A stretch of DNA of 32,000 nt from Candidatus Saccharimonadota bacterium (GTDB taxonomy: Archaea; Nanohalarchaeota; Nanosalinia; Nanosalinales; Nanosalinaceae), in assembly GCA_001761425.1 (NCBI GenBank), contig CP012986.1, positions 990,001 through 1,022,000 of the forward strand, read 5' to 3'. The notes below the pieces were generated by a model, which did no database searches, was not told the DNA's origin, and saw only the letters and a program-made list of their open reading frames with translations. The translations under genes and the position numbers were made by a program. How positions within the stretch are numbered: position 1 is the stretch's first letter; every line of letters begins with the position of its first letter. This document shows positions 3,572 to 31,584 of this stretch, piece after piece.

Positions 3572-3693
3572 TTTTCTACAACAAAATTAGGCCTCAAAAC
3601 TTAAGTCAAAACAAAAATCCCAAACGCAACCTCCTATAAAACTTAACACCACCAACAAAATCACCCAAACAGCAAAACCTTTTTTTTGCCATA

Positions 3694-3740
3694 GGCCGGT
3701 AGCTCAGTACGAAGCAAAAATGCTTCTCAACCCGGCCACC
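3694..3740 (+). pseudogene. collapsed tRNA-Lys-like mini-element (acceptor-like stem plus hairpin)
   Basis: Positions 3694-3708 (GGCCGGTAGCTCAGT) are identical to tRNA positions 3772-3786. The hairpin GAAGCA-AAAA-TGCTTC (3711-3726) matches the base of the intron hairpin (AAGCA...TGCTTC). CCGGCCA (3732-3738) pairs with GGCCGG and resembles the tRNA 3' end. Confidence 0.35.
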
Positions 3741-3770
3741 GACCAAACATATCACAGATCCCCAGAAATG

Positions 3771-3924
3771 GGGCCGGTAGCTCAGTCTGGCAGAGCACTC
3801 GGCTCTTAACTGGTTACGCTGAGGTTAACACACAAAAAAGCATTCGACCACACGAATGCTTCAGAAAAACCAAACGTCCAGCAGAGACACCGAGCGGTCG
3901 CGGGTTCAAATCCCGTCTGGCCCA
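3771..3924 (+). tRNA. tRNA-Lys(CUU) with an 80-nt intron at the canonical 37/38 position (intron 3809..3888)
   Basis: Manual fold:
- Acceptor stem GGGCCGG / CTGGCCC.
- D stem GCTC / GAGC.
- Anticodon stem CTCGG (3798-3802) / CCGAG (3890-3894), anticodon CTT at 3805-3807.
- T arm GCGGG-TTCAAAT-CCCGT, discriminator A at 3924.
- Bulge-helix-bulge: CTCT (3803-3806) pairs with AGAG (3883-3886), flanked by 3-nt bulges; outer helix CTGG (3810-3813) pairs with CCAG (3878-3881). Confidence 0.8.
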
Positions 3925-4068
3925 CTCCCAGTTATGTTGTAAGGTGTGGCAACGGACGGAAAAACAGCATTTCAAAACCTGGACTGATTTCATTCTATCA
4001 TATTCTTCTGGAAGTCACGGAACCTTCTCGCATACCTATTCAAGGATAGGCAAAGGAGGTGTAAAACC

Positions 4069-4356
4069 GTGAGCCTGGAAACAGAAGAGAAGAACAAGCT
4101 TCAGAACAAGAAGGAAGACATCCTAGATAACTGTAAGATCTTGCCGGAGGACGCTGAATGGGCAACCGAGGAATACGAATCCAAGATCGAAGACCAAGGT
4201 GCAGAAAAACCGGGAACCAAAGCACTCTACATGAGAGATATCGAACGTATCCTGGAAAAACTTCCATGTAGCATCCACGAACTACCAGACATGACTTACG
4301 GTGAGCTTCTGGAACTCAACGAGAAGATCTTGAATTCATCAACAGCTTCCCCATAA
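4069..4356 (+). CDS. hypothetical 95-aa protein, first gene of the island
   Basis: GTG start preceded by a perfect Shine-Dalgarno GGAGGTG (4055-4061) with 7-nt spacing. No family recognised. Confidence 0.45.
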   Translation: MSLETEEKNKLQNKKEDILDNCKILPEDAEWATEEYESKIEDQGAEKPGTKALYMRDIERILEKLPCSIHELPDMTYGELLELNEKILNSSTASP

Positions 4357-4425
4357 TCCATTGAAAGATCATGTGTTGTCAAATTATTTATTTTGTCTGA
4401 GTTTTTTGAACCAAGTTAAACAGGA

Positions 4426-5637
4426 TTGGGCCTAATTGTGTCGCAATTAAGTCCTTCTATGAGTTTAAAAGAAGATATAGGGGAATTAGTGGAAGCCATA
4501 CCAGTTTGTTTAAGTTTGGGTTTAACATTAAGAGAATGTATGGAAAAGGACTTCCTTGAAGTAGGTAGAAGAGATTATGAATGCTTGGATGGATTCAGTT
4601 CGTACATTCGAGATGAAGTACGGTTAGATGAACTCACAGGCAAACTCAATATCATTGGTGCTGTCAACGATTTTCACAGCAAACAGGCCTTGATTAACTC
4701 TCTGAGTAAATCTTTCAATATCATCAATGATAATGGTAATTTGTTCCTTTTAGAGGCTCATAAAGGAGAAGAGCCATATTACATGCTTTACGATAATGAC
4801 TTTCCTGTCTTCTTCACTACTGCTAGAAAAACTGAGGGTCCTCGGAGTAAAGGCAATATTAGCAATACATTATTCAGGCATATTGAATGGGAAGCTAATT
4901 TAGGCCGAATGTGGGTCAGTCAGGCTCACATGGAGGAGATTAGAATGGATATTGTTGAACAGTACCAAAATATTCTGATCCCACAATTCTCGGCTAAGAG
5001 AAACAAGAATGTGAATATAGAAGCTAAAAGGAGGCCAGATTATGACAGAACAATTCAGTATTCCGCAGATGATGGGCTTAAGACATATAAAGAGATGAAG
5101 AGGCAGTATGGCGTGCTGCCTACTACAATGAAGTTTGAAAAGCCAGGTAAATTCAAGTTCAAGGTCTCCACAGACGGAGTTTTTACCATAAATAGAGGAG
5201 GACTTGATGAATCGGTGCGCTTGATTAAAGAAACAATTGATCGTCTAAGACACATCAAAGGAGCAATTGACACTTCAGAATACCGGATGAAGAAAAACAA
5301 GTATTCTTCAGATTCCGCAATACCGAGAAGCAAGCCTTGGGCTATTAACCTAAAAAATGGCTTAGACGGGAGAGATGTTAGAAATTTTAAGAGAGCTATT
5401 GAAGATGAATATTGGGGATTCACTGTTTCTGAGTTTAACAGTAGCCTGAAGGGAAGGCCTCATATGTCTGCCACACTTGTTGATTCAAGCAGATTTGGCA
5501 GGATAGCTGTAAAATCCAAAGATGGTATCCTCAGAGTATATCCCAGAGAAGATACGGGCATAGATGAAGCACTGAGAGTTTACGAGTATGTTACAGATCA
5601 AATAGACAATACAGCTACAGCTACAGCAGTGAATTAA
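4426..5637 (+). CDS. hypothetical ~392-403 aa protein, roughly neutral/basic, unknown family
   Basis: Long ORF. Position 4426 is TTG; the first ATG is at 4459. It is rich in K/R/N/I, unlike the acidic host proteome. Its stop lies 3 nt before the next gene's ATG. Confidence 0.6.
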   Translation: MGLIVSQLSPSMSLKEDIGELVEAIPVCLSLGLTLRECMEKDFLEVGRRDYECLDGFSSYIRDEVRLDELTGKLNIIGAVNDFHSKQALINSLSKSFNIINDNGNLFLLEAHKGEEPYYMLYDNDFPVFFTTARKTEGPRSKGNISNTLFRHIEWEANLGRMWVSQAHMEEIRMDIVEQYQNILIPQFSAKRNKNVNIEAKRRPDYDRTIQYSADDGLKTYKEMKRQYGVLPTTMKFEKPGKFKFKVSTDGVFTINRGGLDESVRLIKETIDRLRHIKGAIDTSEYRMKKNKYSSDSAIPRSKPWAINLKNGLDGRDVRNFKRAIEDEYWGFTVSEFNSSLKGRPHMSATLVDSSRFGRIAVKSKDGILRVYPREDTGIDEALRVYEYVTDQIDNTATATAVN

Positions 5638-5640
5638 GGC

Positions 5641-6741
5641 ATGAAGATGGAAGAAGTTGACTACGAGGATGAACTCAAGGAAGTACCTAATCCAGATATC
5701 AGTAAGGTTAGAGAGTATTACAAAGACTTTAAGTCTGAGATAGATGAAGATCAGAAGAGAAAGGAACTTAGAGACTCATTAGATACGAGGAAAACGCATG
5801 ATAGTTTGGTTGGAAAAATAGCTTCTGCCTTTCATCAAGCTGAGGAGGCTGAAGGGAGTGATACAGGATATGAATTTGCTTTTACAGAACCTTTAGAGGA
5901 GAGAGGAATTCCCAATGGAGATATTCTACTTGTCAAGGAAGAAGAGGAAGGCATCAAGCTGTGTATAGTAGAGTGCAAATCTGGTTCAAAATATCCTAAA
6001 TGGTTCAATCAGATCTCAAAAATAAAGGAACAGCTTCAGGAAGAAGATAATCGGAGAGAGATTAAAGCTCAGATAGACTGTAGAGATAAGGAAATTAACT
6101 TCATACAGTATGTAATAGCCACCAGCGGCAGGAATCTAAGCGATGTAGATCCGAGCAGATATGAAGCTAATTATCCAGATAGTATTGCCATTTGGGGTGT
6201 TGATGAGATCCAACAATCTCTTTATGCTAAAAATGGTTACACTTGTAATGACAAAGATATAGCATCGAAAGTGGGGGAAGGTATTGATTATGGCAGGGTA
6301 GAGAATCCTATAAAGTACACGATTTCTAGTCATCCTGTAATAATATTACAGAGCGTGCTATTTGATATAATTAAATCCAATGCAGAAAATAGTCGATTTA
6401 AGGAATTTAATGAAGAAGAATTTTATGAGGAATTCGAAAAGAATCTTCAAATGGGTGTAGAAGGATCTAACAAAAATGATTTGGTTAATGGAGTCATTGA
6501 AAGCATTCTTAGTTTTGGAGAGGATATTAGAATAATTTCAAGCGATGAAGAGGATTTGAGAGGTACTAAGGATTACAGGATTATGTTCAGAGGTAAAAAA
6601 CCTCCTATGGCTCGCAAAGCAGTTAAAGAAAAGTTTTTGAGGAATAGGCCAGTCAGAAGAGTTGCAGAGGATGCCTTCCGACAAGCTCTGGAAAAATATA
6701 GAAACGAGGATAAACAGGGCGGCCTGGATGATTTTACGTGA
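5641..6741 (+). CDS. PD-(D/E)xK (NucS/Hjc-like) nuclease-fold protein with a C-terminal PIP-box-like peptide
   Basis: IPNGD94ILLV...KLCIVE111CK113SG matches the D...(D/E)xK core. It also parallels the NucS motif seen in this window (GFIDVFARDENENYVVIEVKR). The C-terminus reads QGGLDDFT. Confidence 0.6.
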   Translation: MKMEEVDYEDELKEVPNPDISKVREYYKDFKSEIDEDQKRKELRDSLDTRKTHDSLVGKIASAFHQAEEAEGSDTGYEFAFTEPLEERGIPNGDILLVKEEEEGIKLCIVECKSGSKYPKWFNQISKIKEQLQEEDNRREIKAQIDCRDKEINFIQYVIATSGRNLSDVDPSRYEANYPDSIAIWGVDEIQQSLYAKNGYTCNDKDIASKVGEGIDYGRVENPIKYTISSHPVIILQSVLFDIIKSNAENSRFKEFNEEEFYEEFEKNLQMGVEGSNKNDLVNGVIESILSFGEDIRIISSDEEDLRGTKDYRIMFRGKKPPMARKAVKEKFLRNRPVRRVAEDAFRQALEKYRNEDKQGGLDDFT

Positions 6742-6830
6742 ATTCTATTTTGCGTGAAAGTTTTCGCACAGGGCTTTGGTTTATAGGGTATTCGGGTACG
6801 CAGTTTTCCCCAGATCTATGAACATGGGTT

Positions 6831-7055
6831 ATGGTATGGGGTGATGATTGGGAAGCTATCAGCACGGCCCTCCTCGCAGTGATTTTTTCTGCAGGAGGTG
6901 CTACTCAGGCAGGGATCGCAACGATCTCCCTGGACGGTCTTTTCAGTCTGTCATCTACAATGACTACGTTTGCAACTATTCCAATCAGTTTCGGGTTTGT
7001 TGCTGCGATTATTTCTTTAGCAGCTATCTACATGATGAAAGGCCTGACACAGTAG
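6831..7055 (+). CDS. hypothetical small (74 aa) membrane protein
   Basis: ORF composed of two to three hydrophobic segments (ISTALLAVIFSAGGA, FATIPISFGFVAAIISLAAIYMM). It ends inside a hairpin. Confidence 0.35.
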   Translation: MVWGDDWEAISTALLAVIFSAGGATQAGIATISLDGLFSLSSTMTTFATIPISFGFVAAIISLAAIYMMKGLTQ

Positions 7056-7062
7056 GCCTTTT
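7038..7062. terminator. hairpin AAAGGCCT-N8-AGGCCTTT followed by a T-run, between convergent genes
   Basis: 8-bp perfect stem (7038-7045 / 7054-7061) with an 8-nt loop. A T-tract follows on the plus strand and an A-tract precedes it. It sits between the 74-aa ORF and the minus-strand gene that ends at 7071. Confidence 0.35.
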
Positions 7063-7070
7063 GAAGATTC

Positions 7071-7874
7071 CTATGGTTCAACAGGAAAGAACGTTTTTGG
7101 AAAATGTTCATTTCCCTTAGGCCAATGTTGATCAAGAAACTCTACTAACTCCTCTTTTGGCTTATTCTCATAGTTATCAAATCTGAGATACGAGTGATGT
7201 AGCCTCGAGTTTCCACTTGACGCATCCGCTACATATGTAAATAGCACTAAAGAACCTATCTTCCTGTCAAACACCTCAAAGTTTTCCCTCACCCACTTCT
7301 TTACCTTTTCTCTGGAGATATCCTCATCTCTATCGGCAGAACTAAAGTAAATATTAGTCATATCAACAAAAAGAGCATTACTCTGGTTATAGTAATCTTT
7401 GCCAGATTTGCTACCTATTGTTTGCTTTATCTTTTCTTCAATGGTTCTATCTCCTCCAGAAAAATGCGAACTCTGGCACTCAATATCTACATTTTTATCT
7501 TGAACATCAAAGTCAGGAGGATCTGGATGTTCAAAATCAATATCTTTTCTGATAAGTGACGCAGCAACATCTATCTCAAACCTTGTACCGAAATAATTAT
7601 CATAATCTTCCTTTTTTAATTCCTCTCTAAATTCATCAAAAAGTTCTTCTCTAGTACTTTTCACTTCAGAGAGATGTTTTGCGAACATCTTCAGTCTTAG
7701 AAGGTTGTAGTCTCTTCTTTCATACTCTCCGGCGTTATGAAGCCTTATCGTCTCCTCTGCCACATCCCGCATATAATCCGTAATCTGATCATTTTCACCA
7801 GGAAGAAACTCTGTATCCAATAATTCAGCCAGTTCCGACTGAACGCTTCCGAAACGCATCATAAAATCTAGCAT
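7071..7874 (-). CDS. hypothetical 267-aa protein, possible degenerate PD-(D/E)xK-like fold
   Basis: Long ORF. The pattern FE100IDVAASL...PDFD123V...VDIE132CQ134 resembles a nuclease core but has Q in place of K. The region is low GC and has no AGGCCT. Confidence 0.5.
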   Translation of the reverse strand: MLDFMMRFGSVQSELAELLDTEFLPGENDQITDYMRDVAEETIRLHNAGEYERRDYNLLRLKMFAKHLSEVKSTREELFDEFREELKKEDYDNYFGTRFEIDVAASLIRKDIDFEHPDPPDFDVQDKNVDIECQSSHFSGGDRTIEEKIKQTIGSKSGKDYYNQSNALFVDMTNIYFSSADRDEDISREKVKKWVRENFEVFDRKIGSLVLFTYVADASSGNSRLHHSYLRFDNYENKPKEELVEFLDQHWPKGNEHFPKTFFPVEP

Positions 7875-7983
7875 TATTATCTGCCTTAGAATGGACTACT
7901 TACTGCAATGATAGGTTTTTCTTTCACTTAAGTTTTCGGTAGGCCTTAAAAGTGGCTTTTTCCAAAAATGGTGGAGAGGGGTT

Positions 7984-8397
7984 ATGGCGAGTGCTGATGA
8001 GATTCTGGATGTTTCTGAAAGCGAGTTGAAATCTGAGGATCTTTCCGGTGAGGACTGGTCCAGGCTTGCTTCAAGGCCTTCCAGTGGTAGGGATTATCGG
8101 ACTTATGGGATCGGTGGTATCGATGGTTCCGGTACTCTGAGATTGGAGGAGGCGCCTGAAGGCCTTGTCTGGGATTTTATCGTGGTGTATGAGTTCGGTT
8201 TCGCAGGTGAGGAGGAGCCTGTTTCCAGTTTGCTGGATGAGGATCCTGATGTTCATACGATTGATCTGCCGTATAACGTGTTTGATGACGTGGAGGAAGC
8301 TGAGAGTTACATGGATTTCGTGGTGGATTACGGCGTGGAAAATGTTCTGGATGAGTACGGTGTGAGGTCTGCGAAGTCCCGTTCCTGTAATCTTTAG
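7984..8397 (+). CDS. hypothetical highly acidic protein
   Basis: 137-aa D/E-rich ORF. GGAG lies upstream of the ATG. Confidence 0.45.
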   Translation: MASADEILDVSESELKSEDLSGEDWSRLASRPSSGRDYRTYGIGGIDGSGTLRLEEAPEGLVWDFIVVYEFGFAGEEEPVSSLLDEDPDVHTIDLPYNVFDDVEEAESYMDFVVDYGVENVLDEYGVRSAKSRSCNL

Positions 8398-8443
8398 GTC
8401 CTGGACGTTAGAGTATTAACTTTCTTTCTGCATTTTTCTTTTC

Positions 8444-9190
8444 GTGGAACGGTACTGGGAGCTGGATTCTCTGAGAGGCCTTTCAGTCGTACTGATGATA
8501 CTGTTTAACTGGTCTTATGCCCTGAAATTCTTGAAAATCTATCATCTGTTCCCTGGAACCAGTTTCCTGTACTGGAACATTTTTCCACTGTTTGTAGCCG
8601 GTTCTTTCATGTTCATCGCCGGCATCTCGCTCTCCCTCAGCTGGAACAGGTTCAGGGACGAAGCTTCGAGAAAAGATAAATGGAGGAAGTACGGATTAAG
8701 AGGCCTGAAGATTTTCGGCCTGGGCCTTGGCATTACTGCGGTTACATGGCTAACTTTTCCAGACAGTTTCATATTCTTCGGCATACTGCATCTTTTAGGC
8801 CTTTCGATAGCGTTAAGTCCCCTGGTTATCGGAGATAGCAGGAAGACCTTTGCCTTATCAGTTTTCGTCGTCTTTCTATTTATTCTTCCTGAACTTGAAG
8901 CATCTTCTGTATTTCTTGCTTCTCTGGGTTTTTCCAGCTTGTCTTTCAGTACTTTTGATTACTTTCCTCTGGTTCCGTGGTCTGCTGTTGTCTTTACAGG
9001 TATCTCTCTGGGGCACTGGCTTTATCCGGACGGTAGGAGAAGGTTCGAGGTCGGAAGGCCTGACTTAGAGATTTCTGGTAGGCCTCTGGATTTGCTGGAG
9101 TTGCTGGGGAGGAATTCTCTTTTTATCTATCTTCTGCATCAGCCTGTGCTTGTCCTGTTCCTGGTTTTACTGGGTTATCCTGTCTTCTAG
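8444..9190 (+). CDS. multi-pass membrane protein, DUF1624/acyltransferase-like
   Basis: GTG start. The N-terminus WELDSLRGLSVVLMILFN resembles the R-x-x-x-D-x-x-RG motif of DUF1624/acyltransferase families. About 7 hydrophobic segments. Confidence 0.5.
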   Translation: MERYWELDSLRGLSVVLMILFNWSYALKFLKIYHLFPGTSFLYWNIFPLFVAGSFMFIAGISLSLSWNRFRDEASRKDKWRKYGLRGLKIFGLGLGITAVTWLTFPDSFIFFGILHLLGLSIALSPLVIGDSRKTFALSVFVVFLFILPELEASSVFLASLGFSSLSFSTFDYFPLVPWSAVVFTGISLGHWLYPDGRRRFEVGRPDLEISGRPLDLLELLGRNSLFIYLLHQPVLVLFLVLLGYPVF

Positions 9191-9214: not shown

Positions 9215-9730
9215 ATGGAAGGTTTAATCTTTGAGCTGTCGTTTTTCTGTATGGAAGCTGTAACTGTTCTAGCTCTGGCATTTCTGGCGGTCGGTGTGAT
9301 AGGTTCTTTTCTGCCGATGATGCCTGGAGCACTGGTCTCGCTGATAGGCCTCAGTATTTACTGGTGGAGTACCGGTTTTACAAGACCTCACGTCTTTATC
9401 GTTGTTTTACTGTATCTGACTGGTTTCACAGCTTTAATGTTTGACTGGTTCGCAGGTGCTCTAGGTTCGAAGGCTGGAGGTGCTTCAAAAAGTACTGTTC
9501 ATGCTGCAGCGGTTGCTGGAATACTTTTTTTCTTCGTAGGAGGGCCTGTAGGTACGATCATCGGTATAGGCCTTGTTGTATACCTGCGGGAGTATCTTCT
9601 GACTGAGGACTCGGACAGGAGTTTGAAGGCTGCGGTCTATACCACCGCTTCGATGCTGGGATCTACGGTTGTCCAGGGAGCTTTGACAGGCCTTATGCTG
9701 GTGACTTTGCTTTTAACCATGCTGATCTAG
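9215..9730 (+). CDS. membrane protein, DUF456-like
   Basis: Four hydrophobic segments and LPMMPGALVSLIG. Family recalled from memory. The start could instead be the Met at 9251. Confidence 0.45.
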   Translation: MEGLIFELSFFCMEAVTVLALAFLAVGVIGSFLPMMPGALVSLIGLSIYWWSTGFTRPHVFIVVLLYLTGFTALMFDWFAGALGSKAGGASKSTVHAAAVAGILFFFVGGPVGTIIGIGLVVYLREYLLTEDSDRSLKAAVYTTASMLGSTVVQGALTGLMLVTLLLTMLI

Positions 9731-9765: not shown

Positions 9766-10233
9766 ATGAGTGAATGGACTGAGGCGACATTGACCTACCT
9801 GGTCGATGATGGAGAGGTACTTTTGATCGAGAAGAAACGGGGTCACGGCGCAGGCAATTTCAACGGACCTGGCGGAAAGCTCGAAGGAGAAGAGACACCT
9901 AGAGAAGCAGCAAAGAGAGAATTTCGTGAAGAGACAAAAGTACAGGTTGAAGGCCTTGAGAAGGTCGCTGAGCTAAAGTTTTTCTTTGGAGGAGACCCTG
10001 ACCAGCACGTCCATGTCTTCAAGACAGAAAAATATCGGGGATCTGCGGAGGAGACTGAGGAAGCAAGGCCTGAATGGTTTTCTGTCGAGGAGATGCCGTA
10101 TGATGACATGTGGCCGGACGATGAGGTCTGGATGCCGAAAGTGTTCGACGGGCAGCGTTTTGAGGCCGTTTTCAGGTTCAGTGAGGACGGAAGCGAGGTA
10201 AAAAGTTATGAGTTCTCCGAGCCAGGTTTCTGA
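9766..10233 (+). CDS. NUDIX hydrolase (MutT-like)
   Basis: Nudix box GGKLEGEETPREAAKREFREETKV fits GX5EX7REUXEEXGU. Confidence 0.8.
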   Translation: MSEWTEATLTYLVDDGEVLLIEKKRGHGAGNFNGPGGKLEGEETPREAAKREFREETKVQVEGLEKVAELKFFFGGDPDQHVHVFKTEKYRGSAEETEEARPEWFSVEEMPYDDMWPDDEVWMPKVFDGQRFEAVFRFSEDGSEVKSYEFSEPGF

Positions 10234-10281: not shown

Positions 10282-11013
10282 ATGGGTTCTATCATCGCGG
10301 TCGGCGGAGGAAGCATTGATTCAGGTGAGACACTGTCGATAGACCAGAGAATAGTCGAACAGGCAGGGAAAGAAAATCCCAGGGCCTTATTCATTCCGAC
10401 AGCGAGTGAAGACTCCGAAGGATATATAGAGGCCTTTCATGAAACCTATGGCGACAGATTAGGCTGTGAGACCGAAGCATTGAAGCTTACAAAGAAAAAA
10501 CATACTGAAGAAGAGATAGAGGAAAAAATCAATTCCTCCGATCTGATCTACGTTGGAGGAGGAAACACTCGTGAAATGATCGAGACCTGGAAGGAGAAAG
10601 AAGTCGATAAATACCTGAAAAAGGCCTATGAAAACGGGAGTGTGATGTCAGGGCTTTCAGCGGGCGCGATCTGCTGGTTCGAGTACGGACACAGCGACTC
10701 CGAAAGCTACGAGCAGGACGGCGAATGGAGCTTCATACAGGTTGAAGGCCTCAACTTTGTTGGAAACGTTCTTTTCTGCCCTCACTACCATCAGGAAAAC
10801 AGGGAGGCCTCCTTCGAGAAGATGATGAGAAATAACCCTGATCTGACGGGTCTGGCGGTCGATAACAACGCTGCTGTAAAAGTTGAGGAGAAAGAGCTGA
10901 AAGTTCTGAAATCCAGGGACGATGCAAAGGCCTACATCGCCGAGATAACTGAAGGAGATTTCAAACTGCGTGAACTGTCAGAGGGAGAAAAATATCCTAC
11001 AAAAGAACTTTAA
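10282..11013 (+). CDS. peptidase S51 family (dipeptidase E-like)
   Basis: IYVGGGNT, then SGLSAGAICW (nucleophile Ser context), then CPHY. This pattern is typical of S51. Confidence 0.7.
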   Translation: MGSIIAVGGGSIDSGETLSIDQRIVEQAGKENPRALFIPTASEDSEGYIEAFHETYGDRLGCETEALKLTKKKHTEEEIEEKINSSDLIYVGGGNTREMIETWKEKEVDKYLKKAYENGSVMSGLSAGAICWFEYGHSDSESYEQDGEWSFIQVEGLNFVGNVLFCPHYHQENREASFEKMMRNNPDLTGLAVDNNAAVKVEEKELKVLKSRDDAKAYIAEITEGDFKLRELSEGEKYPTKEL

Positions 11014-13142
11014 ACCATATTTCCAGGGAAATCACGTATTACTGTCTCATATTCTCCGCCTTCACCTGCTGAATTGAACCTGTACTCCTCAGCAAGCTCG
11101 AGGAACTCGTCGATATTCTGTTCATCCAGAACTGTTCCTTCCCAGCGTTCTTCGAGGCCTCTCGCCGCGACACTCGTGATCTCAACTTCGAAGCCTTCTC
11201 TTATCAGCCACCGCATGTACCTTGGCTGGTCCTCCTGCCAAAGCGGTGTGAAAACCTTCAGGCCTACCTGTTCGGCTACTTTATCGATCCTGTCCCTCTG
11301 GTAGGTTGAGGCAAGCGCCCCAGCGACTACTCCTTCCGCGTCAAACTTTTCTTTCGCGGTTTCAAGGCCCTGTCTGAGGTCTTCAAGTTCCTTTTCTTTT
11401 TCTCCGTCTGTTTTCTGTATTACCAGCGGTAAATCAAGTTTTGAGGCCTGATTTTCGATAACTGAGTCTTCTTTCTTCGAGTCAAACATGTAGCTGTCTT
11501 TGTTTTCCGAGCGCAGGGTCAGAAGACAGGATATCTCGTTGTTTCTTCTCTCTATCCTGTATATAGCTGCGTTCGAGTCCTTCCCTCCAGAAGTGAGGGC
11601 TACAATCCTGTTGTTCGGCTTCTTTCTGAGGGAAAGGCCTTCCGCCTTTTTTTCTGGTTCTGATTTTTTGAGCGATGAAACTTTTCCAGAGTTTCTGGAG
11701 TCAGTGGAAATCTCTGATTTTCGTAGCGAGTTAAGATACTGCTGTTTGTGTTCGAATTCTTTATCTCTTGAAAGCCTGTCTATGGCTTTGTCGAAGTTAC
11801 TGCCGTACTGTGCAGCAGTTTTACCTCTCCAGGCGACTTTTTCAGGTACACCGAGCTTTTCAGCTGTCTTTCTAAGAACATACTTCCTGTAATCATCTTT
11901 TACCTTGTAATCTTCCGGTATAGTCAGTGCATGTCTGATCAAATCATGGTCAAGGAACGGAAGCCTGATTTCCCTGCCGTTTCTAAAGCTGACAACGTTG
12001 TCACGGTACAGATCGTTTTCAAACAGTGAGCGAAGGCCTGAAAGACATTCTTTGTTGAGATAACCTTGCTGTCTGTAGTATCCTGCGTAGAGCTGTTCGG
12101 AACCAAGGCCTGACATGATGACCTGCTGTGAATCCCTGGAATTTTTCAGTGCCATATGGAAGGGCAGGGCTACACCGTTTTTCACGACGCTGGTCGAAGA
12201 GATCCAGTCCACGAGCATTGGCAGGGTCTCTTCGACTTCTTCAAGGTCGGCTTCGTAGGCCTCTAGCTCTATACCCATTTCTTCGGCGATTTCACCTGCC
12301 CAGTCCATGTCTCTCGGTGTATTTACGTTGCCGTGCTGGATGCCTGCGGTGTAGGCCGTGAAATCTTTACCTAGTTCCTGTAAAGTCGCAGCGATAAGCG
12401 TGGAGTCAAGTCCTCCGGAGAAAAGGAGGCCTAGATCGCCTTCAGGTACTCTTTTCTCTACTGCGTCCATGAATTTTTCTTTTATCTCTTCAGAGGCCTG
12501 TTCTATATTTTTCTCCTGATCTACGTCTATTTCGAAGAATTCTCTGTGTTCAAACTTTTTTTCTCCTGTTTCAGTGTTGTATCTGAGTATCTGTCTTGGA
12601 TGCAGTTCCCGGCATTCAAGGCCTTCTTTCTCCATTGCCTGTTTCTCCGATGCGAAGGCAAAGTTTTCTTCTTCCTCCGTGTACCAGATCGGGTTTACTC
12701 CAAGGATGTCTCTTGCTAAAATTATTTCGTTGTCTTTGATGTATGCGAATGCATAGATTCCGTCGATTTCTTCGAGGCCTTCAAGGCCTTTTTTCTCCAG
12801 TATTTTGAGAAGTGTTTCTGCGTCATTTTCTGTTTTCCAGCCGTGTTTTTTGTTCAGTTCTTTCCAGTTGTATATTTCGCAGTTTGCGGTGAGAAGGCCT
12901 TTTTCTTTGATCGGTTGTTGGAGTTCTCCGATTACTGAGTGGAGGTAATGGCCTATGGCGAAGTTTTCTGTCGTTGAGATTTTGCAGGAGCTTCCTCTGT
13001 GGCTTAGATGATTGTTCAGGGCCTTTGCTGTTTCGGTGTTTTCTGCTCCTGTTATTCCGCACATGTTAATGTCTGGGTATGTGAAGACTTTTGAGTCTCC
13101 AAAAAACTGGCTGGAGGAGGAAGTGTTTGTTACTGGATTCAC
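11010..13142 (-). CDS. fusion protein: glutamine-dependent asparagine synthase-like (GATase II + PP-loop) plus a C-terminal Dph6/DUF71-like PP-loop ATPase
   Basis: - MCGITG lies at residues 27-32, so the likely true start is ATG at 13064; 13142 is GTG.
- LLFSGGLDST is the AsnB PP-loop.
- A basic linker follows.
- IVALTSGGKDSN...PLWQ...GEGGEYETVIRDFP is typical of the diphthine-ammonia ligase/MJ0570 family. Confidence 0.75.
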   Translation of the reverse strand: MNPVTNTSSSSQFFGDSKVFTYPDINMCGITGAENTETAKALNNHLSHRGSSCKISTTENFAIGHYLHSVIGELQQPIKEKGLLTANCEIYNWKELNKKHGWKTENDAETLLKILEKKGLEGLEEIDGIYAFAYIKDNEIILARDILGVNPIWYTEEEENFAFASEKQAMEKEGLECRELHPRQILRYNTETGEKKFEHREFFEIDVDQEKNIEQASEEIKEKFMDAVEKRVPEGDLGLLFSGGLDSTLIAATLQELGKDFTAYTAGIQHGNVNTPRDMDWAGEIAEEMGIELEAYEADLEEVEETLPMLVDWISSTSVVKNGVALPFHMALKNSRDSQQVIMSGLGSEQLYAGYYRQQGYLNKECLSGLRSLFENDLYRDNVVSFRNGREIRLPFLDHDLIRHALTIPEDYKVKDDYRKYVLRKTAEKLGVPEKVAWRGKTAAQYGSNFDKAIDRLSRDKEFEHKQQYLNSLRKSEISTDSRNSGKVSSLKKSEPEKKAEGLSLRKKPNNRIVALTSGGKDSNAAIYRIERRNNEISCLLTLRSENKDSYMFDSKKEDSVIENQASKLDLPLVIQKTDGEKEKELEDLRQGLETAKEKFDAEGVVAGALASTYQRDRIDKVAEQVGLKVFTPLWQEDQPRYMRWLIREGFEVEITSVAARGLEERWEGTVLDEQNIDEFLELAEEYRFNSAGEGGEYETVIRDFPGNMV

Positions 13143-31539: not shown

Positions 31540-31584
31540 TAGGCCTTAATATCATTTATAAGATTTAACTCCGAACGGTTTTGT

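Follow-up and report, generated by a model that had tools for sequence, protein, structure and literature searches.

A linked gene pair with a predicted PD-(D/E)xK nuclease in an acquired island beside tRNA-Lys of Nanohaloarchaea archaeon SG9, and its possible part in genetic conflict

What is the origin of a 4-kb stretch of low GC content that begins directly after a tRNA-Lys gene of Nanohaloarchaea archaeon SG9, and do its genes form a system of their own? The SG9 genome, 1.1 Mb in size, was assembled from Atacama halite (bioRxiv 10.1101/029934). We analysed a window of 32,000 nt from this genome (contig CP012986.1, positions 990,001 to 1,022,000; all coordinates below are those of the window), of which the 403-aa open reading frame (ORF) is AQV86_05425 of SG9 (100% identity). 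A first-pass annotation, made from the letters of the DNA, had described positions 3925-7940 as a foreign, tRNA-flanked island carrying a cassette of five ORFs (95, 392-403, 366, 74 and 267 aa), centred on a nuclease. All five ORFs are present where it placed them. The analysis reported here finds that the island was acquired horizontally and that two of its genes belong together, namely A (4540-5637, forward strand, 365 aa) and B (5641-6741, forward strand, 366 aa). We put at roughly one in two the probability that this A-B pair is a nuclease-based conflict module that serves either the cell or its own carrier element by acting against competing viruses or plasmids.

The segment 3925-7940 has the most deviant composition in the window. 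Its GC content is 39.2%, against 46.7% for the rest of the window, and it is the lowest-GC 4-kb stretch there; 200 of 200 non-overlapping 4-kb windows have 45.5-48.7% GC. GC content at third codon positions (GC3) is 0.32-0.37 in A, B and the 267-aa ORF (orf267), compared with 0.49-0.59 in the flanking genes. At finer scale the island is composite, with low-GC blocks at about 4300-6750 (A and B) and about 7050-7900 (orf267), and between them a native-like spacer of 46-48% GC that holds the 74-aa ORF (orf74) and a hairpin. The 95-aa ORF (orf95) is near-native as well (45.5% GC, GC3 0.53).

The palindrome AGGCCT, the most frequent hexamer of the window (111 copies against 6.9 expected), gives a second measure. 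Exactly four copies lie within 3595-7940, at 4685, 5455, 7040 and 7054, the last two inside the hairpin; the first-pass annotation had given the same count. At the density of the remaining window 15.4 copies would be expected (Poisson P = 6.5e-4 for the depletion), and other 4-kb windows hold 6-26. None of those windows was as poor in GC or AGGCCT as this segment. The density of AGGCCT is 4.2, 1.9 and 1.1 per kb in close relatives and about 0.1 per kb in Candidatus Nanohalobium constans and Nanohaloarchaea archaeon H01, which hold the nearest A-B homologues; further relatives have 0 per kb. To be enriched in this hexamer is characteristic of the SG9 lineage, and depletion inside the island therefore marks imported DNA. 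Across the window the hexamer occurs about 3.8 times per kb (e.g. at 6-11 and 928-933, and as far as 31541-31546), with a mild preference for the flanks A-AGGCCT-T. A literature search for AGGCCT with Nanohaloarchaea found no paper; an uptake or recognition signal, a methylation-linked motif and a repair bias are possible causes.

Comparison with relatives gave the same answer. A search with the neighbouring ribosomal protein S3Ae retrieved 13 related nanohaloarchaeal contigs. Two of these (L027 and L028, S3Ae 80% identity) carry S3Ae, a homologue of orf125, tRNA-Lys and msrA, followed by homologues of the SG9 genes at 9215-9730, 9766-10233 and 11010-13142, so that about 0.8 kb stands where SG9 has 5.3 kb. 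None of A, B, orf267, orf95 and orf74 was found in this syntenic interval, and contig L031 (S3Ae 73% identity) is likewise without the island genes. In the closest informative relative, L026 (93%), similarity covers the tRNA with its intron and breaks off exactly at the 3′ end of the gene; this is where the island had been said to start, and Rfam places that end at 3924. Its GC content, GC3 and AGGCCT density all deviate, and related nanohaloarchaeal contigs have no such segment at the syntenic tRNA-Lys locus. The ~4-kb stretch after tRNA-Lys is horizontally acquired DNA, as the first-pass annotation had supposed, and shows the tRNA adjacency, atypical composition and absence from relatives of a genomic island.

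These data also bear on the view that the stretch is ordinary host DNA, with native genes that evolve fast or decay and a low GC content that is local noise. The native-like composition of orf95 and of the orf74 spacer agrees with such a view, as does the lack of both an integrase and an att repeat. A and B do not: they are intact and full length, keep their conserved motifs, are missing from the syntenic relatives and lie in the compositionally most deviant part of the window, and their closest relatives (76% identity for A, 65% for B), in N. constans and H01, include an N. constans pair inside an integrase-bounded element. We regard a native origin as very improbable indeed.

Which of the island genes form a unit can be read from their distribution elsewhere. 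Database searches returned 10 relatives of A and 29 of B; ten further haloarchaeal loci came from a genome scan. B directly follows A in 14/14 distinct loci, and the same order occurs in H01, in a Thermoplasmata metagenome-assembled genome (MAG) and on pHLAC01 of Halorubrum (Hrr.) lacusprofundi, the downstream gene being recognised as B by hhalign in the latter two (96.8% and 92%, respectively). A plasmid of Haloarcula sp. JP-L23 has the same layout; its downstream gene is a candidate B, with a motif region that did not align. The two genes are separated by 2-11 nt or overlap by 4 nt, and in SG9 the stop codon of A and the start of B lie 3 nt apart, the gap reported at the outset. Linkage of the two is strict and their spacing tight, which is consistent with co-translation, and their adjacency in this order was counted in 19 distinct loci of Nanohaloarchaeota, Halobacteria and Thermoplasmata. 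In the phage collection the two match Haloarcula virus Harhisp1 only, through HarHp1_105 (34% identity over 88% of A) and HarHp1_100 (26% identity over 93% of B). The question posed at first, whether the two genes recur together and do so in defence islands or proviruses, has a positive answer on both counts, the pair being found in defence islands and in one provirus. The five-gene cassette is rejected, for orf95, orf74 and orf267 accompany the pair nowhere else; they are unrelated neighbours of A and B, which alone belong together.

A third gene lies upstream of the pair in 9 of the 14 loci, Harhisp1 among them, and encodes a protein of ~176-244 aa, in most cases with one or two predicted N-terminal membrane segments. 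SG9, N. constans and H01 lack it, as do three haloarchaeal loci with the B proteins closest to that of SG9. In at least six haloarchaeal loci (L001, L003, L004, L005, L017 and L018) the pair has 40-47% GC inside DNA of 53-68% GC, which suggests that it either spread recently from donors of low GC or is under selection to be AT-rich. The pair was not described in any paper found by literature searches on AF_0896 and on archaeal defence surveys.

Gene B encodes a predicted PD-(D/E)xK nuclease. It matches phrog_35712 (E 2.5e-26), a family of unassigned function, and carries the catalytic motif: the conserved residues are E83, D94, E111-C-K113 and Q156-Y157. D94 is kept in 46/47 B homologues, E-C-K occurs throughout the clade that contains SG9, and distant members retain E-x-K, as VECK in Thermoplasmata and GEAK in Hrr. 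lacusprofundi. The core proposed by the first-pass annotation, D94 with E111-x-K113, is thus conserved among homologues, with the lysine replaced in one haloarchaeal clade that is taken up below. An AlphaFold model from a 29-sequence alignment (predicted local distance difference test, pLDDT, 89.7; predicted template modelling score, pTM, 0.86) can be read as starting with helices at the N terminus, after which come a core of mixed alpha/beta structure (about aa 78-200), a helical region that includes a beta hairpin, and a long terminal helix; the C-terminal helical and beta-hairpin region, which bears the invariant D311-Y-R313...G318, can be read as winged-helix-like. Sequence and profile searches of the Protein Data Bank (PDB) with B, as with orf267, gave nothing meaningful. 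The non-significant Foldseek lists for B are dominated by PD-(D/E)xK proteins (Cap4, SdaI, PaqCI, FokI, AF2093, HamA, Shedu, Can2, MmcB-like and UL24), winged-helix domains are also common among these weak matches, and membership of the PD-(D/E)xK superfamily is only suggested by the modelled fold.

Protein A belongs to the uncharacterised family PF27341 (AF_0896_M), which is precomputed on the SG9 protein and on every A homologue, and it matches phrog_24372 (E 8e-82; function unassigned). Upstream starts are available at TTG 4426 and ATG 4459. Its homologues, of 360-365 aa, align from M39, so the conserved start is ATG 4540 and the product has 365 aa with an isoelectric point (pI) of 8.8; the near-neutral protein of 392-403 aa described earlier gives way to a shorter, basic one. 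The pI is 8.4-8.8 in three nanohaloarchaea as against 4.6-5.2 in haloarchaea, where the protein is acidic, and charge is therefore a lineage trait. In a HMMER scan of 1.84 billion representatives the family forms 191 clusters at 50% identity, nearly all of 350-380 aa, which makes A a stand-alone protein of fixed architecture; named members come from Halobacteria and Thermoplasmata. Among 49 diverse members D178 and G191 are the only invariant residues, with F150, R165, R170, Y174, Y190, G213, P335 and D356 nearly invariant, and a central conserved block reads F-T-A-x-R ... R-P-x(4)-R-T-I-x-Y-x-G-x-D-G ... Y-G-V-L-P. No histidine in the same alignment is invariant or nearly so, as a HEPN site would need, and there is no (D/N/S)PP(Y/F/W) motif among the conserved positions. 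Neither an internal repeat (hhalign) nor a PDB relative (sequence and profile searches) was detected. The AlphaFold model of A, built from 10 sequences, has a pLDDT of 54.7 and is worst in the central conserved block; its weak Foldseek matches (AdoMetDC-like sandwiches, RnlA N-terminal domains and TBP-like folds) are leads only.

The RnlA matches lend themselves to a different account, in which the pair is an addiction (toxin-antitoxin-like) module, B being a nuclease toxin and A its neutraliser, that stabilises its carrier and survives in SG9 as the remnant of an element. A resembles RnlA N-terminal domains weakly and convergently, by Foldseek (probability 0.6-0.7, on a poor model) and by the 2/49 family members that touch Pfam RnlA_toxin_N at E 0.03. 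The gene for the putative neutraliser comes first, the 4-nt overlap is typical of many toxin-antitoxin (TA) operons and fits the two-gene layout of type II systems, the pair is carried exclusively on mobile elements and plasmids, and it has persisted in SG9 after the loss of all other element genes. The sizes do not fit, since 365 and 366 aa are far above the typical type II partner (<150 aa), and no DNA-binding domain of antitoxin type is recognisable in A. Harhisp1, moreover, already has RelE/CopG beside the pair. Because many TA-like systems are defence systems, this account overlaps with the explanation that we prefer; taken on its own, it seems to us rather improbable.

Mobile elements carry the pair, and its surroundings are rich in defence genes. 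The betapleolipovirus provirus Harhisp1 is inducible and integrated at tRNA-Ala (PMC7911831); in its genome (MW344767) HarHp1_105/HarHp1_100 lie between a membrane protein and Orc1. In N. constans the pair occupies a ~17-kb element between tRNA-His and a tyrosine integrase, together with type II and type I restriction-modification (R-M) genes. The H01 locus has an integrase, a protein with a DUF5906 replication-type NTPase and an MmeI/Eco57I-type enzyme, and the Thermoplasmata MAG has an integrase, a resolvase and IS110, with a Dam methylase and a HEPN protein. The copies of Hrr. lacusprofundi and Haloarcula sp. JP-L23 are on plasmids. Known defence or conflict genes occur within 7 kb of the pair in at least 8 of 16 loci, and include, besides those just named, an MmeI/Eco57I-type (type IIG) enzyme in Halopenitus, a type I R-M system in Haloterrigena, a PLD-SNF2 helicase (HKD+Snf2 or DrmD-like by PADLOC) in Hrr. 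aquaticum, BrxC/PglY in Natronosalvus and RelE/CopG in Harhisp1. The R-M genes near the pair in these loci are complete systems of their own. Outside the pair, and the upstream membrane gene in nine loci, neighbourhoods mostly differ, a few families recurring in 2-3 loci, and their make-up is typical of the mobilome.

Within the SG9 island itself, PADLOC-DB v2 gave nothing significant for any ORF (best, A at E 0.0095 to PDC-M25B, 13.5 bits, and orf95 at E 0.021 to JetA) and no match at all for B or orf267, and the defence models of Pfam and NCBIfam do not match the pair. No methyltransferase domain was found in any island ORF by Pfam and NCBIfam scans, as an R-M system would have; pleolipovirus virion and Rep genes are likewise missing from the island ORFs, for which PHROG and Pfam scans match two accessory families only. 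The Pfam, PADLOC, PHROG and NCBIfam scans bear out the early statement that the island lacks an ATPase, a helicase, a methyltransferase, an integrase and any catalogued defence family.

Some further features of these loci deserve mention. The pHLAC01 copy (L039 6611-8795, Hrr. lacusprofundi ATCC 49239, HLAC_RS16615/HLAC_RS16610) adjoins an ISH3 transposase and a helicase-related gene; Hrr. lacusprofundi is a host of a nanohaloarchaeon (PMC6642349). A large pentapeptide-repeat protein is encoded close to the pair in Harhisp1 (L001 11924-13240) and on the JP-L23 plasmid (L040 5186-6652), which may be a recurrent association, the protein perhaps acting as a DNA mimic or in counter-defence.

The same neighbourhoods raise another alternative, that the pair serves the DNA transactions of the element itself (such as starting or resolving replication, recombining, or cutting at specific sites to integrate or home), with B a structure- or site-specific nuclease and A its accessory. 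The pair adjoins Orc1 (Rep) in Harhisp1 and lies near Orc1/Cdc6 genes in haloarchaeal loci, PolB is nearby in Hrr. xinjiangense and the DUF5906 protein in H01, DUF7845/DUF7114 genes stand beside tRNA-Thr near the pair in two loci (L005 and L013), and a winged helix-turn-helix (wHTH) joined to a nuclease also suits site-specific endonucleases. Such replication and integration neighbours nevertheless vary from locus to locus while the pair is constant, and in SG9 and others (for example beside MutS in L018) it stands without any replication or integration gene. An IMG/VR scan with the A profile found no copy. The other pleolipoviruses of the phage collection lack the pair, which is therefore accessory to that virus family and not part of its core. 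This alternative appears to us unlikely.

We return to the conflict module, for which the following sequence of events can be proposed. The functional core would be a self-contained two-gene operon, A then B, that integrative elements and plasmids, and also at least one temperate pleolipovirus, carry among halophilic and other archaea. B is predicted to be a metal-dependent DNA endonuclease with a PD-(D/E)xK core formed by E83, D94, E111-x-K113 and Q156, which its winged-helix-like C-terminal region would position on DNA. A and B would be produced together from one transcript, A binding B as a sensor or licensing subunit, so that cutting by B would await the sensing of invading or non-self DNA or of an infection cue. 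The outcome would be protection of the cell or of the carrying element, through defence or superinfection exclusion. The nuclease activity of B, its complex with A and the sensor role of A we infer from the features described above; a defence outcome, abortive infection or addiction is likewise suggested by the neighbourhood.

Several points weigh against a role in conflict. No known homologue links the pair to defence, and its position beside replication genes (Orc1, PolB, DUF5906) in several loci would fit element DNA metabolism equally well. The frequencies of neighbouring defence genes are without a matched background and are suggestive only, and the empty IMG/VR scan counts here too. Foldseek matches of B all have E > 0.01 (best E 0.07 in the PDB and 0.017 in BFVD), A has no interpretable fold (pLDDT ~55), so that the role given to it is a guess, and the SG9 island has neither integrase nor att site to show by what route it was acquired. 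In the haloarchaeal three-gene clade, which includes Harhisp1, B reads x-C-E-[VI] with the ExK lysine replaced, and catalysis there may be different or lost. BamHI also has Glu at the Lys position of the motif, and the loss of the lysine need not, therefore, mean an inactive B. We note that this loss coincides with the presence of the third gene (L001, L003-L005, L010-L012, L017 and L018).

Beyond the conflict module in general, a more specific proposal can be made: that the pair represents an undescribed archaeal immune or exclusion system in which a novel-fold AF_0896_M sensor licenses a winged-helix PD-(D/E)xK nuclease, and that it is exchanged between DPANN nanohaloarchaea and their haloarchaeal hosts by pleolipovirus-like and other integrative elements, the haloarchaeal form adding a membrane protein that may link it to events at the envelope. 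We advance this tentatively, as somewhat doubtful in its full form. Nanohaloarchaea depend on haloarchaeal hosts (PMC6642349), and the presence of the pair in nanohaloarchaea together with its ~40% GC inside haloarchaeal DNA of 53-68% GC points to gene flow across the symbiont-host boundary. Archaea appear poor in known defence systems beyond R-M and CRISPR (PMC12988326), from which it follows that genuinely archaeal systems are largely undiscovered. The A-B pair is of interest here as a compact, strictly linked module of uncharacterised families that has a nuclease-like effector, occurs in defence islands and is carried by an inducible provirus. Hrr. lacusprofundi and Haloarcula hispanica are cultivable and genetically workable. 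As the former carries a copy on pHLAC01 and the latter one in Harhisp1, the hypothesis is directly testable.

The remaining ORFs of the island can be dealt with briefly. The acidic orf95 (4069-4356, forward strand) starts with GTG at 4069, and the Shine-Dalgarno sequence claimed for it is present as GGAGGTG 8 nt upstream. Compared with the genes upstream of the pair elsewhere it gives hhalign E 0.17 and BLASTP E 0.47 and 0.022, none significant. The hydrophobic orf74 (6831-7055, forward strand), in the spacer of native-like GC, has one predicted membrane segment (aa 43-61); it had been thought to supply the module with a small membrane peptide and is not conserved beside the pair elsewhere, no counterpart after B being found in L002 or L037. 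Between the convergent orf74 and orf267 lies the hairpin AAAGGCCT-N8-AGGCCTTT (7038-7061, unstranded), as first reported, which holds two of the four AGGCCT copies of the island and from its sequence is terminator-like; a bacterial promoter and terminator scan was uninformative for this archaeal host.

On the reverse strand, orf267 (7071-7874) is a separate low-GC gene of an uncharacterised family. It has 15 homologues, all metagenome-derived, the family being otherwise represented by the SG9 record only, and they sit without A-B in the contigs examined; the convergent 267-aa gene that follows B in N. constans is unrelated to it (20% identity). Conserved positions are E100 (nearly invariant), the stretch HPDPPDF at 116-122 including D118 and D121, E132-C (E132 invariant), H137 and K148. 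Of the degenerate nuclease pattern originally read as E100, D123 and E132-x-Q134, the two glutamates hold up, D123 and Q134 are not conserved, and the acidic positions kept in the family are D118 and D121 instead. The protein may have a nuclease-like motif; Pfam, PDB and phage searches gave no match for it. In one nanohaloarchaeal contig (L007 3302-8798) the orf267 homologue adjoins OapB/OapC/Amphi-Trp genes, as does the integrase-bounded A-B element of H01 (L037 16045-21098), which hints at a shared integration hotspot in Nanohaloarchaeota.

The tRNA-Lys(CUU) gene at the left edge of the variable region (3771-3924, forward strand; RF00005, 51.8 bits) is the sole Rfam tRNA in the window, and its anticodon loop reads CT-CTT-AA. 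ARAGORN misses it because of an intron of ~80 nt at 3809-3888, in the canonical 37/38 position. This intron is unusually long and contains a hairpin, GCATTCG-N6-CGAATGC; it is 90% conserved in L026, measures ~60 nt in L027/L028 and is absent in L031. The term tRNA-flanked applies to this side of the island and fails for the other, where neither an integrase nor an att repeat marks the far boundary: no att-like direct repeat of the tRNA 3′ end was found, and a Pfam scan detected no integrase domain in the island ORFs. Integrase-mediated insertion at tRNA-Lys was rejected on these grounds, and the island is at best a decayed insertion or remnant. The sole repeat related to the tRNA lies upstream of the gene and duplicates 15 nt of its 5′ end exactly (3694-3708 = 3772-3786). 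It opens a ~50-nt element (3694-3745), GGCCGGTAGCTCAGT-ACGAAGCAAAAATGCTTC-TCAACCCGGCCACC, the ends of which are able to pair like an acceptor stem and enclose a hairpin; the element is kept in L026 and more weakly in L028, and a tRNA-like mini-element, a signal for processing and a remnant are possible readings of it. Beyond the island, the acidic orf137, of no family, and an HGSNAT-type acyltransferase gene (8444-9190) lie within 7984-9190. Both have native composition and are missing from the syntenic interval of L027/L028, where msrA fills the space; the variable region past tRNA-Lys is accordingly wider than the low-GC island.

How does the pair compare with systems already known? Its predicted nuclease chemistry resembles that of the PD-(D/E)xK effectors of Hachiman (HamA-HamB), Shedu, Can2 and Cap4 of the cyclic-oligonucleotide-based antiphage signalling system (CBASS), which are among the top matches of B, if weak ones, and the pair shares with them a two-component logic and a defence-island context. 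It differs in having no helicase, SAVED/CARF or DUF4263 domain and no PADLOC match, with fold matches at E >= 0.07, and in a partner, A, that belongs to the unrelated family PF27341. The restriction enzymes FokI, SdaI and PaqCI, also weak Foldseek matches, combine a nuclease core with a winged-helix-like region much as the model of B can be read, and in other loci the pair often adjoins R-M genes. Unlike them, however, it has no cognate methyltransferase beside it in SG9 or most loci, B places the nuclease before the wHTH, and the obligatory partner A has no counterpart there. With RnlA-RnlB and LsoA-LsoB the pair shares a two-gene, mobile, anti-virus logic, and A is weakly like the N-terminal domains of RnlA by two independent routes, below significance and in part on a low-confidence model; A nevertheless lacks the C-terminal HEPN motif R-x(4-6)-H of the RnlA/LsoA toxins, and the nuclease is a separate PD-(D/E)xK protein. 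HarHp1_105 and HarHp1_100 of Harhisp1, annotated as hypothetical, are true homologues of SG9 A and B, with the same order, tight coupling and PHROGs. Their clade is the three-gene one, HarHp1_110 being the membrane protein encoded upstream, which SG9 lacks; their B is without the ExK lysine that SG9 B has, and they are part of a complete inducible provirus (PMC7911831), whereas the SG9 island is without virus genes. The A-B pair takes its place among mobile two-gene nuclease systems; should A turn out to sense by a novel mechanism, the pair could come to count as an archaeal system in its own right.

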